Shown piece after piece: positions 4,167 through 52,952 of a DNA stretch of 64,000 bases. Source of the stretch: Eledone cirrhosa. Taxonomy: Eukaryota. The notes beneath the pieces were generated by a model that searched no databases, was not told where the DNA came from, and was given only the letters and a program-made list of their open reading frames with translations. Location: positions 164,548,001-164,612,000 of the forward strand of contig OZ024741.1 of the NCBI GenBank assembly GCA_964016885.1. Reading direction: 5' to 3'. Made by a program: the position numbers and the translations under genes. How positions within the stretch are numbered: position 1 is the stretch's first letter; each line of letters opens with the position of its first letter.

Positions 4167-4600
4167 GAAAGATTTGAATGGATACAGTTTAGTTGAAAGG
4201 AATTTATTGACACGTGTTTCTATAACAGTTACATAACCTAAAACAGCTATCTACAAACTTTTAGTTATGCAGACATTCAATATTTCAATGTTATTATTTA
4301 CTGTCATTTCATCAGAATAATATTACTGGGGACCTATTTAGTTTTTATAGAGAATATTAGGAGGGAGGGGTGAAGTTGTTGGAAGAATAGTTGAAGGAGT
4401 GGTTTTTCGATAGCAGTGAGAATTCTTGGTGGCAGTGAGTAATTAGATTCCCATCTGTTGTTTTGACATTTTTTATAGAATATATTATTGGTTATTTTTC
4501 TAAATCTATAGAAGGATTAGAGATAGTAAAGATATGCGTGGTTGGTTTTGTGTTTGCACTTAATTAACATTCAGACTTAAATTTTTCTTTCAAGTGTACG
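4167..4600 (-). mobile_element. 3' remnant of a Penelope-like retroelement (decayed ORF end, HHR, tail, TA array)
   Basis: Frameshifted minus-strand translation near 4400-4500 (LEK*PIIY...NNR...LITHCHQEFSLLS) loosely resembles PLE GIY-YIG C-termini (EK..I...LNKRSELISKCRH.NKFLL). It lies directly upstream of the HHR. Confidence 0.45.
4204..4320 (-). ncRNA. Type I hammerhead ribozyme motif, PLE type, with 88-nt helix II
   Basis: Minus strand: UUAUU-CUGAUGA-[aAUGACAGU...ACUGUUAUa long hairpin]-GAAA-CACGUG-UC^AAUAA. Intact core, palindromic helix III, GUC triplet, 5-bp helix I. First helix II pair is an A.A mismatch. Confidence 0.75.
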
Positions 4601-5239
4601 TATCCTTTCACCCACGCATTCACACACAAATATATTTGCACACCTCTACAAAATACATATACTCACAATTCACATATTCATACTTACATATATATACACA
4701 TGCATACACATATATATACACACATGTATTCATGTACATACATACGCGCTCATGTGTATACATTTTCATACTCAACTTATCTTTATATACACACGTATAG
4801 ACACACTCATATATACATACATACTTTAGTCCATGTGTACACACATACACATACTTACACATCCATATACACATATATACATACATATATATATATATAT
4901 ACATATACATATATATATATATATATATATATATATACATACATATATACATACACATACATATACACATATATACATACATATATATATATAAGCACTT
5001 TAATACATGAATACACTTACATCTAACTATACACATCAAACATATATATATATTTACTTATTTATATACATTTTCACATATATATACATACTTATGGACG
5101 TTTTTAGACACATTCATTATCGCATATTTGTACCTATTCTCATCAGCATATCTTTTGATAATCTACTGTGTGTAATATTTATATTACAACACAACGGAAA
5201 ATACTGTATATATATATATATATATATATATATATATAC

Positions 5240-5425
5240 AGGAAAAAGTATGACCCCGACAGCAGAGCCCAAGCCGTTTCGACGGCTATTTCTGAGAAAT
5301 AGCCATCGAAACGGCTTGAGCTCTGCCGTCGGGGTCATACTTTTTCCTATTACCCACTCTACTACCCTAAGTATTGAGTACTCTGGTGCGTTATGGTCCA
5401 TCTGATTCCTTACCACAATTCCTTC
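5240..5425 (+). mobile_element. TA-inserted palindromic half-hammerhead element, family A copy 1
   Basis: 109-bp palindrome 5240-5348 (axis 5294), GAAA-CGGC..GCCG-TC^GGGGTC at 5308-5336, shared tail tacccactctactaccctaagtattgagtactctggtg, TA arrays on both sides. Confidence 0.8.
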
Positions 5426-5848
5426 TATATATATATATTAATATCAATGTTTCTATTTAATTTATATATACGAAACACAAACATTAAATGAATAAAGAAC
5501 TCAGTATGCAAAATAGATTTAAATATTTTTTTTACAAAGTGACAGTTGCATTGAAATATCCCCAAATTTGGTTTTTTAAACTGTCAGTTTGAAATATTGT
5601 ATTTGATGAAAGTTTTAAGTAACTGTCACATTGTAAATGTGTGTTTGAGTGCATGTGTGTGTGGCTATTACTACTTCATATACATGTGTTCTTCAGTGGT
5701 GGTGGTGTGTATATGAGAATAACTACTATTTATAGATGGATGGCCTTTCAAATATTAACCACCTCTTTACTTGATGTTATCAGGATGGAGTTGGCCACCA
5801 GCAAGAGTGAAAGCACTTAAGTTGGAATTACTATTTCAATGCTTATAT

Positions 5849-6188
5849 GGAGGCACACGGCTTAGTGGTTAGAGCCTTGCAATCGAAAGATTGGGAGTTC
5901 AATTCTCAGACCAGGTGATGTGTTGTTTCCTTGAGCAAGACACTTTATTTCACATTGCTCCAGTTTACTCAGCTGTAGAAATGAGATGATAGGAGTGGGG
6001 TCCCTATCATTCCACTGCAACGTGGTCGTGGAGGTGCCATGGCAAAAAAGCACCCAGCCCTCACTGTAAATGAGGTTGGTGTTAGGAAGGGCATCCAGCT
6101 GTAGAAATCAAACCAGAATCAGTTCCCGTCCCACCCTTGCAAGCAGGGAAAAGTGGACGTAAAATGATGATGATGATGAAGATGATGA
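5849..6188 (+). mobile_element. SINE family 1 copy, the only full plus-strand copy seen
   Basis: ggaggcacacggcttagtggttagagc...ggacgtaaaatgatgatg. Confidence 0.85.
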
Positions 6189-6261
6189 TACTTCGCTATC
6201 CTCCGGGATAATGCTTTCTCTATTCTGCCTGCTGGGGCCATGCATGGAAGATGGACCTTAA

Positions 6262-6482
6262 CCCTTTAGCATTTACATTACTCTATATTTACTATTATAT
6301 TTTCATGGTAAAGGCTTTACCTCACATAATTATCTCACATAATATCAAATCTATGAGATTTTGATATTATTTATTTTGAGAACAATACCTTAAAGTCAGT
6401 ATGAGGAGCCAGTTACGCCCGGTTTGAACGGAAAGAGATAAGAGAATTCTGGCTGGATATGACTGGTTTCAATGCTAAAGGG
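6262..6482. mobile_element. piggyBac-like MITE
   Basis: TTAA-ccctttagcatt...aatgctaaaggg-TTAA. Further copies at about 6718-6930 and inverted at 32853-33096. Confidence 0.75.
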
Positions 6483-50639: not shown

Positions 50640-51040
50640 ATTAAAATAAAGTACCAGTAATGCACTGGAATAATTGCTAGCCTTGTGCCAAAAGTAGAAA
50701 CAATTATTATTATTATTATTCGCCGAGGTTGACTTTGCCTTTCATCCTTACGGGGTCGATAAAATAAAGTACCAGTAATGCACTGGGTAATTGCTGGCCT
50801 TGTGCCTAAAGTAGAAACAATTATTATTATTATTATAGGGTGGTAGATTGGCAGTATCGGTAGAGGGTCGGACGCCATGCTTTGCAGCATAGACGTACGT
50901 CCCTTTACGGTCTGAGTTTAAATCCCGCCGACGTTAACTTTGCCTTTCATCCTTAAGGGGTCAATAAAATTAAGTACCAGTAATGCACTGGGATAATTGC
51001 TGGCCTTGTGCCAAAAAGTAGAAACAATTATTATTATTAG
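50640..51040 (+). mobile_element. Tandem SINE family 2 copies of increasing length
   Basis: Two 5'-truncated copies and one full copy, each ending in (att)n. Confidence 0.8.
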
Positions 51041-51573
51041 GCTATTGGGTCGACTAAACAAATTATCATTTACTATTTCACATTTTTTTACACAGTGTAA
51101 CACTGTATAGTAGTCACATGTACACACACAAACACACACACATTCATGGATAAGAGTGATGTAAAGACACACATGTATAAGTCTGAAGCAGGTACAGACA
51201 TACACACATGTATAACAGTTATCTACATAAACACAGACACACACACACATGTCTAAAAGTGAGGTAGGCTCAAACATACACACATACACAGATACACACA
51301 TACACAGATACACATGGGTATAAGAATATGGTAAAATAGAGAAAATAATTTCCACAATCAACATGGTAATTACATATACATTATTGAGTTCCAAATTATA
51401 TGACATTGTGGTAATGGGAAAATATGTTCTAATTAGCTGGGGACACTGTTAACTCTTGAATAGGCCAACAATTTTGGGACTTTTCAATTAGGATATTCAC
51501 CAGAAAGAAACAAGAAAAAGTATATTTGCATACAATCATGTGTGTATGTATATATATATATATATATATATAT

Positions 51574-51991
51574 ATATAATAGAAAACGAAAAAAATCAGT
51601 GTTGCATCTGAACTCAATTTATTGTGTGTTACAATTGTTTCGCTGGCGGAGAGGTCGAGACGCGATCATTGTGTGGATCTGTCTGATTCTGGACCCGCAG
51701 GTTTGACAGACACGTCTAATGATTTCGGAGCATATTCTCTCACTGTGAGAGAATATGCTCCGAAATCATTAGACGTGTCTGTCAAACCTGCGGGTCCAGA
51801 ATCAGACAGATCCACACAATGATCGCGTCTCGAGCTGTCCGCCAGCGAAACAATTGTAACACACAATAAATTGAGTTCAGATGCAACACTGATTTTTTTC
51901 GTTTTCTATTATATCATACTCTGCTCTGTAAGAGCATAGAGTGCTCAACCGGCATACCGCCTATGGAAGCATCTTAGCTACCATCAGACAG
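51574..51991 (+). mobile_element. TA-inserted element: 341-bp palindrome with half-hammerhead and 77-nt tail
   Basis: Palindrome 51574-51914 (axis 51744, two G.G mismatches seen). GAAA-CAATTG-TA^acacacaataaa at 51847-51870. Confidence 0.8.
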
Positions 51992-52013
51992 ATATATATA
52001 TATCCGCATATAT

Positions 52014-52650
52014 ATCATCATTCATCATCATCATTTCATTTTACGTCCGCTTTTTCCCTGCTTGCAAGGGTGGGACGGGAACTGATTCTGGCTTGATTTC
52101 TACAGCTGGATGCCCTTCCAAACACCAACCTCATTTACAGTGAGTACTGGGTGCTTTTTTGCCGTGGCACCTCCACGACCACTTTGCAGTGGAATGATAG
52201 GGACCCCAGTCCCTATCATCTCATTTCTACAGCTGAGTAAACTGGAGCAATGTGAAATAAAGTGACTTGCTCAAGGAAACAACACATCACCCGGTCTGAG
52301 AATTGAACTCACAACCTTTCGATTGCAAGGCCAATGCTCTAACCACTAAGCCATGTGCCTCCATATATATATATATCATCATCATCATCACCGTTTTACG
52401 TCTGTTCTTCCACGCTAGCATGGGTTAGACGGGTTGTCCTGTTGTGGGCAGTGTCTGGTCGGCTGACCATGCCTTGCTCATACAGGAACTGATTTGGCTT
52501 GATTTCTACAGCTGGATGCCCTTCCTAACACCAACCACATTTACAGTGAGTGCTGGGTGCTTTTTCGTGGCGCCTAAACGTCCACTTTACAGTGTGGGCT
52601 GGGTGATTTTTTGCCGTGGCACCTCCACGACCACCTTGCGGTGGGGTGTG
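52014..52650 (-). mobile_element. Two adjacent SINE family 1 copies (52014-52362 full, 52376-52650 head-less variant)
   Basis: Same consensus segments. Confidence 0.8.
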
Positions 52651-52797
52651 TGGGGGCATATTGTCTATATGCTTCAGCTTGTACCCATGGGAGGTCGGGT
52701 ACTCTGTATTACTGCGTGACGCCAGAGGTCACGGTCGTGTGTCATCGCCTTTGAGATATATACATACATATATATATATATATATATATATATATAT

Positions 52798-52952
52798 AAC
52801 GAAGGAAATGTGGTAAGGAACCAGGTGGACCATAACGCACCAAAGTACTCAATACTTGAGGTAGTAGAGTGGGTAATAGGAACCAGTAAGACCCCGAGAA
52901 TTAGCCGTCGAAACGGCTTGAGCTCAGCTGTCGGGGTCTTACTGGTTCCTAT
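52798..52952 (-). mobile_element. Family A copy 5, tail-proximal arm truncated
   Basis: Reverse-complemented tail, ataggaaccagtaagacccc, then gagaattagccgtcGAAAcggc..gctgTCggggtcttactggttcctat, TA-flanked. Confidence 0.8.

Follow-up and report, generated by a model that had tools for sequence, protein, structure and literature searches.

Inverted pseudo-long terminal repeat pieces of Penelope-like elements in (TA)n arrays of Eledone cirrhosa: probable products of two-ended priming

The analysed window, a stretch of 64,000 nucleotides (nt) from the 3.0-Gb genome of Eledone cirrhosa (assembly GCA_964016885.1, contig OZ024741.1, positions 164,548,001 to 164,612,000 of the forward strand), contains many (TA)n arrays, in several of which short palindromic inserts with hammerhead ribozyme motifs reside. 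That these inserts derive from Penelope-like elements (PLEs) had been proposed from the letters of the window alone (hereafter the sequence-only reading) and is borne out here. They are short inverted pieces of the pseudo-long terminal repeats (pLTRs) of PLEs, probably formed in (TA)n by priming from two DNA ends and run-off of both complementary DNAs (cDNAs).

Inserts and hammerhead motifs of the window

The inserts of the window belong to several families, designated by letters. In the following rows, numbers with a plus sign count from the family-specific arm boundary described below, and "new" marks inserts absent from the list of the sequence-only reading.

4167..4700 (-): family H, long copy in forward orientation only (approximate 5' limit); complete hammerhead 4204-4320, 88-nt helix II region
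5239..5426 (+): family A (Hydra-clade PLE), short copy flanked by (TA)n; tail-less inverted arm (5240-5294) to +5, forward arm from +6 with the 3' ribozyme half and a tail of ~78 nt
34610..34835 (+): family P, palindrome in (TA)n with perfect 81-bp arms and tail; no canonical hammerhead core seen in the insert; new
35427..35617 (+): family A, copy of an older subfamily; layout as in 5239..5426, junction asymmetric
37621..37734 (+): family A, both arms tail-less, as in 25 other loci found; inverted arm to +1, forward arm from +7, arms differing at a subfamily-diagnostic base
37789..37933 (-): family A, tailed arm trimmed nearly to the tail, tail-less arm ~45 nt longer; new
39546..39720 (-): family D, forward-only copy; complete hammerhead 39588-39665
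44872..45176 (-): family C, complete hammerhead 45006-45071; inverted arm of just 24 nt, forward arm beginning ~85 nt 5' of the core
45683..45842 (-): family B, truncated and tailed copy with a forward arm only; new
46762..47140 (-): family B, palindrome in which each arm bears a complete CUGACGA hammerhead (46886-46956, 47033-47103); axis ~47014 at the family B boundary, CATG microhomology joint, tail-less arm internally deleted
51574..51990 (+): family E, palindrome with 170-bp arms that meet at 51744, the CC-AGTG boundary; hammerhead-like sequence limited to the 3' half
52799..52949 (-): family A, tailed arm from +40/41, adjoining the predicted cleavage site (+42), tail-less arm to +6
59989..60250 (+): family F, inverted and tailed insert with TA on its flanks; inverted arm far longer than forward arm, no GAAA box

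The palindromes reported earlier at 5240, 35434, 37621 and 51574 are real, with arms of 54-170 bp where measured and 2-6 mismatches: 54-bp arms with 3 mismatches at 5240-5348, 59-bp arms with 6 mismatches at 35427-35554 and 170-bp arms with 2 mismatches at 51574-51914. The palindrome at 37598-37757 was confirmed in the window, and so was a further one at 34610-34771. Likewise, all five complete type I cores of the sequence-only reading, with helix II regions of 31-88 nt, were seen again. A descriptor scan returned 45006-45071(-) with a helix II region of 31 nt, 46886-46956(-) and 47033-47103(+) with 36 nt each, and 39588-39665(-) with 43 nt; the fifth core is 4204-4320(-) with 88 nt. The strict form of the descriptor gave 6 matches in the window versus 3 in total over 20 shuffles, one of the 6 (1054-1165, with a helix II of 2 bp) looking like chance. 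Of 268 Rfam matches to the window, the best 150 included no hammerhead and amounted to AT-hairpin noise.

The single layout ascribed earlier to all inserts, with an inverted segment, a hammerhead motif and a tail within (TA)n, is found in several copies but not in those at 4167 and 39546, which lack the inverted arm, nor in that at 37621, which lacks the tail. Two supposed members had to be corrected: the box of the insert at 59990, taken for a GAAA-bearing half ribozyme, reads GAAC, and 62020 is an old inverted repeat of 72 % identity with neither flanking (TA)n nor a core.

Family A and its autonomous parent

Family A is represented in the window by the copies at 5240, 35427, 37621 and 52799 as well as 37789..37933. 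Among 30 genome matches to the 5240 copy are long copies carrying the 5' ribozyme half; 5' of the supposed helix they read ACCCC-UUGANAA-G-NN-CGGCUAUUU, followed by a loop of ~33 nt and the 3' half. This 5' half, with the U3-A8 core UUGANAA, has 3,058 matches in the genome, and all four bases are present at position N7 among 34 parents. By sequence, the parent motif is a complete type I hammerhead, comprising the boxes with the 3-8 pair, G10.1-C11.1, helices I-III and NUH, for which self-cleavage is predicted only; helices I and II are present in the minimum free energy fold (z -0.28). Parents with the 5' ribozyme half, as foreseen in the sequence-only reading, thus exist for family A (in the form UUGANAA); in family E, none of five parents inspected by eye has CUGANGA or UUGANAA between the strands presumed to form helices I and II.

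The same reading had advised using the tails to look for a parent with reverse transcriptase (RT) and GIY-YIG domains. For family A, such a parent was found as a tandem array with a period of 3,543 bp and a 786-codon RT plus GIY-YIG-type frame. At least six near-identical 3,543-bp units lie in tandem at G000:C1:91.47-91.50 Mb (L176-L178), followed by an inverted copy, and three of the tandem units hold open frames of 784-786 codons. The single open reading frame (ORF) encodes (i) YRDDGL, SDKTG and RWR, (ii) a CNCPDRSIC linker, and (iii) a C-terminal AYIG segment, CNLC and CKH. It therefore displays the motifs DKT, RWK, CxCX5C, CxxC and CxH of the Hydra clade, RWR being one change away from RWK, and the parent also has the tandem units forming pLTRs, the tail and the (TA)n insertion of PLEs. 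By these motifs, though not by a tree, family A is an autonomous PLE of the Hydra clade; the label "Neptune", used at first for the parent, was dropped since the motifs match the Hydra clade (Craig et al. 2021, PMC8557442). An intact tandem element of this clade, suited to biochemistry, is thereby at hand.

In 80 evenly spaced 10-kb stretches of the genome (800 kb), 29 tail matches were counted; inspection by eye showed an inverted arm in ~24 of them, and 1 belongs to a long parent. The insertion into (TA)n noted earlier was confirmed in this sample, in which 29 of 30 family A 3' ends precede (TA)4 against a background of 9 %. Extrapolation from 29-30 per 800 kb suggests ~10^5 copies of family A in the genome.

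Arm boundary, tails and origin of the palindromes

Family A arm ends cluster at the A or G of TT-AGTCC or TC-AGTAC, inside loop II, and among 16 junctions sampled at even spacing, 10 have the end of their longer arm at +1/+2. In case of family B, the 1,931 exact palindromic junctions have the boundary TC-ATATG, ~66 nt 5' of the complete CUGAUGA core, and none of 50 listed junctions passes it by more than 2 nt (by eye). The 59 exact junctions of family E (51574) stop at CC-AGTG, with 2 of 50 listed running clearly past it (by eye), and family C arms end well upstream of the complete core. Since the axis lies at different places relative to the ribozyme in families A, B and C, it follows the family-specific boundary and not the ribozyme. 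A general position of palindrome axes in helix II is thus not confirmed: those of family A fall in the parent's loop II, those of families B and C outside the ribozyme. Nor, in family B, does palindrome formation destroy the ribozyme core, as had been supposed: the complete core is present on the forward arm in 15/15 and on both arms in 12/15 of the loci examined.

The boundaries of families A, B and E have an initiator-like pyrimidine-A. TATTTA is located 29-31 nt upstream of the family A boundary, within the 5' strand of helix II, and a CCAAT box ~65 nt upstream of that of family E. Just 5' of +1, an untemplatable base is a G in 19 of 23 cases in family A (A in the other 4) and in 9 of 16 in family B; templated duplications also occur at family A junctions. 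Judged from these sequence features, the boundary base probably represents the capped start of a messenger RNA (mRNA) transcribed from the 5' pLTR. In family A, such a start would lie in loop II and would explain why the short copies lack the 5' ribozyme half, which they would never have had; the ribozyme does not set the axis.

Public contigs placed on the family A parent show a ~15-20 fold fall in depth upstream of the boundary, a plateau from the distal RT start site to the boundary, and loose ends in TA at each of the two RT start sites; contig depth is not copy number and the sequencing run may be the assembled sample, so this lends weak support only. The same depth check on the family B parent gave a smeared rise without a clean step because the copy is diverged.

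With one anchor, 3,633 family A copies with one tail-less and one tailed arm were found versus 26 with two tail-less arms (~140:1). One end of the insert corresponds to a proximal RT start site (tail-less) and the other to a distal site (tail), and both meet TA. Two-tailed copies exist alongside the two-tail-less ones, and tail-less ends also stand alone in long non-inverted copies (L054, L096). The subfamily marks of the two arms agree, with 48 strand pairs versus 4 singles in the first 100 rows. The notion that two-tail-less copies are mostly chimeric was abandoned as weak, single-strand matches being found for only 4 of 26, with two of the ones viewed differing at a diagnostic base. Elsewhere, family A ends are fused to a fragment of a long interspersed nuclear element (LINE) ORF (LLYGSETW) and to another CUGAUGA-bearing repeat (L027:1290-1500, L026:1440-1500), which suggests template switching between elements.

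Two-ended priming and run-off, considered probable above, would proceed as follows: (i) the GIY-YIG domain would cut both DNA strands, and each 3' end would prime at one of two internal RT start sites; (ii) the second cDNA would displace the first, most likely on one RNA; (iii) both cDNAs would run off the 5' end of the RNA, probably at the capped transcription start; and (iv) the cDNA ends would be joined head to head with 0-4 nt of microhomology, trimming and templated insertions. The two-ended priming step is deduced from the tail pattern together with the biochemistry of PAc, a Poseidon element of Anolis (Frangieh et al. 2024, PMC11167929). A single RNA is the likely template, as opposed to two RNAs from one source.

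One may tentatively go further, at somewhat less than even confidence, and suppose that two-ended priming is obligatory for the integration of PLEs in general, with a dimer acting on one RNA and both cDNAs extending to the cap. Inverted pLTRs and tails would then have this general origin, the family A promoter would lie inside the ribozyme (a TATA-like box in the 5' strand of helix II directing a start in loop II), leaving half a hammerhead at the mRNA 5' end and a whole one at the downstream repeat only, and ~10^5 palindromes would constitute a fossil map of RNA 5' ends.

Several points weigh against these interpretations. Rare chimeric arms (L205, with three diagnostic differences) indicate that two templates can be used, 22 of the 26 two-tail-less copies are still concordant, arm concordance may simply mirror one active source per cell, and priming on one RNA would require displacement of a finished cDNA, a putative step. 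As to the start site, a TATA-like box at -30 is missing from family B, the excess of G is missing in family E (3/8 non-templated bases), and about half of the extra G's in family A could stem from the CTG of the partner arm. Furthermore, the pattern searches presuppose that each arm comes close to the boundary. The parent ORF had no significant match by sequence in Pfam or PDB, its clade placement is based on motifs and not on a tree, and no autonomous partner was found for families B, C, D, E and H, with no parent search made for C, D and H.

The best surviving alternative retains two-ended priming but regards the boundary as an RT stop or RNA processing site, caused by a bound protein, structure or trans-cleavage. 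Symmetry and tail pattern are explained equally well by it, and the missing extra G of family E and TATA box of family B are in its favour. It is nevertheless unlikely, as three unrelated families share the initiator-like A at varying places relative to the ribozyme, and as long copies read through the boundary (3,058 parent halves). Moreover, family A junctions near the predicted ribozyme cleavage site have 137 matches, ~9 of 100 listed beginning at it (by eye); a pile-up at this site is thus unsupported, and from so few and unfocused junctions it follows that cleavage does not shape most inserts.

If priming took place on the element's own antisense RNA (self-priming), or if the 3' end of one cDNA snapped back and the palindrome centre was trimmed afterwards, the arms would be concordant and just one side would bear a tail; recurrent junctions indeed use short words that are self-complementary, among them GTAC and ATAT. 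The geometry of the arms, however, renders this improbable. Among 59 oriented, de-duplicated family A copies, the inverted arm is longer in 23, the forward arm in 24 and neither in 12; similar figures (17, 18 and 10) were obtained for the 45 orientable of 46 junctions fetched from the first 50 listed. A same-site listing, which double-counts some loci, was excluded from the counts. The inverted arm reaches +1/+2 with the forward arm beginning at +4 or later in 14/59, the reverse applies to 15/59, and in 13/59 neither arm stops short of +2, bases often being inserted between the two. Since a folded strand is unable to copy its own last bases, this geometry argues for excluding both snap-back and self-priming, whether or not trimming followed. 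Tail-less ends standing alone and the existence of two-tail-less and two-tailed copies are also at odds with self-priming. With >15,000 natural junctions, a single genome thus provides a nucleotide-level test against antisense self-priming.

According to the sequence-only reading, the cDNA would fold on helix II, and this fold would fix the axis at the cost of the ribozyme core. The position of family A axes in the parent's loop II is compatible with this, and the expected form is seen in one copy (L113). A helix II snap-back would, however, leave a forward arm that keeps the parent's 5' helix strand and the whole of loop II and is always the longer one. The predicted junction start has 12 + 1 genome matches in two family A subfamilies, and just 1 of 11 matches viewed (L113) keeps loop II, as against 13,928 exact palindromic family A junctions (at most 30 nt between the helix II strands) in which the inverted arm copies loop II. 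The inverted arm bears the reverse complement of loop II and the 3' strand and does not contain the parent's 5' strand; it is longer in 23/59 copies. Together with axes outside complete ribozymes in families B and C, these findings leave the helix II fold very little likelihood. An artefact of fold-back libraries or assembly is hardly conceivable: one opposite-strand joint was seen among the public contigs listed, but the arms have diverged by 2-6 mismatches, ends lie at fixed element sites, the tail is on one side only and thousands of loci share family-specific boundaries.

Known systems, other families and further repeats

Published work already covers inverted pLTRs and junction palindromes, tails and TA targeting, ribozyme pairs on opposite strands and the U3-A8 core. 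In the open-licence PMC and bioRxiv literature, no description was found of run-off of two cDNAs as the cause of palindromes, nor of a hammerhead loop that harbours a promoter. Craig et al. (2021) left the origin of inverted structures open in the available part of their study on the Hydra clade of PLEs with a C-terminal endonuclease (EN+), and PLE pLTRs are known to contain a start site (PMC8557442). Family A resembles this clade in having DKT, an RWK-like motif, CxCX5C, CxxC and CxH in a single ORF, (TA)n insertion, a hammerhead in the pLTR, a tail at one end and an inverted 5' copy. It differs in its unit of 3.5 kb (generally <3 kb in the clade), the U3-A8 core, the 33-nt loop II and the dominance of short palindromic copies; the supplements of that paper may already list family A among Hydra families.

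Head-to-head inverted pLTRs with junction palindromes, an optional tail and TATA and initiator motifs were likewise described for Penelope of Adineta vaga (Arkhipova et al. 2013, PMC3846280). Antisense self-priming was proposed there, whereas the junctions of E. cirrhosa contradict it and fit two cDNAs ending at one boundary. In case of PAc, both strands are nicked and extended, two internal RT starts define the tail, ribozyme cleavage is unneeded and a dimer is predicted (PMC11167929). The available part of this study is silent on inverted copies, on the pairing of start sites with insert ends and on run-off at the RNA 5' end; PAc belongs to another clade, and the tail here is ~78 nt. The inverted copies of E. 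cirrhosa are hereby tied to two RT start sites known in vitro. Twin priming of LINE-1 is comparable in that the second DNA end primes on the same RNA and joining involves microhomology, with a cap-derived G being mentioned (PMC11702581). There, the second primer lands internally by microhomology and the cDNAs cover adjacent segments, whereas here both begin at fixed sites and copy one segment to one end, so that a palindrome results.

The U3-A8 hammerhead core has been reported for PLEs of Cercyon (PMC4209133), and minimal type I motifs of metazoan PLEs and non-LTR retrozymes are known with palindromic helix III and as opposite-strand pairs 100-700 bp apart (PMC4209133; bioRxiv 10.64898/2026.07.22.740005). 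In contrast to retrozymes, whose non-coding units stand head to tail in tandem and each contain a whole ribozyme (Cervera and De la Pena 2014, PMC4209133; Li et al. 2026, 10.64898/2026.07.22.740005), the inserts here are head-to-head singles, many with half a ribozyme. A non-LTR retrozyme was accordingly rejected, the short copies being single head-to-head inserts and the tandem seen being the coding parent. Miniature inverted-repeat transposable elements (MITEs) or other DNA transposons were also discarded, for junctions vary from copy to copy and one end bears an extra tail. Palindromes of this kind may be misread as MITEs, as hairpin genes or as broken ribozymes.

Families B, C, D, E, H and P match family A in layout, tail and TA insertion. 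No directly linked RT-EN ORF was seen in the flanks covered, with no parent search made for C, D, F, G, H and P. Other Hydra-like PLE ORF fragments are present in the genome (L039:3770-5366, L216, L096, L091, L126) and are possible partners of families B, C or E. Further copies of family P (L028, L047, L055, L162, L227) were also encountered, two of which begin near an initiator-like site, CC-ACTTT; its parent has a CGGAYGA-like word in place of the canonical core.

Apart from these inserts, the window contains a near-perfect 84-bp inverted pair of a common repeat resembling short interspersed nuclear elements (1998-2175), with a 10-nt spacer and its end at a short TA run; the same repeat recurs unfolded at ~52200-52360. 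Positions 32286-32485 are 200 bases of N, and a tandem array with an imperfect unit of ~25 nt occupies 3600-3810.

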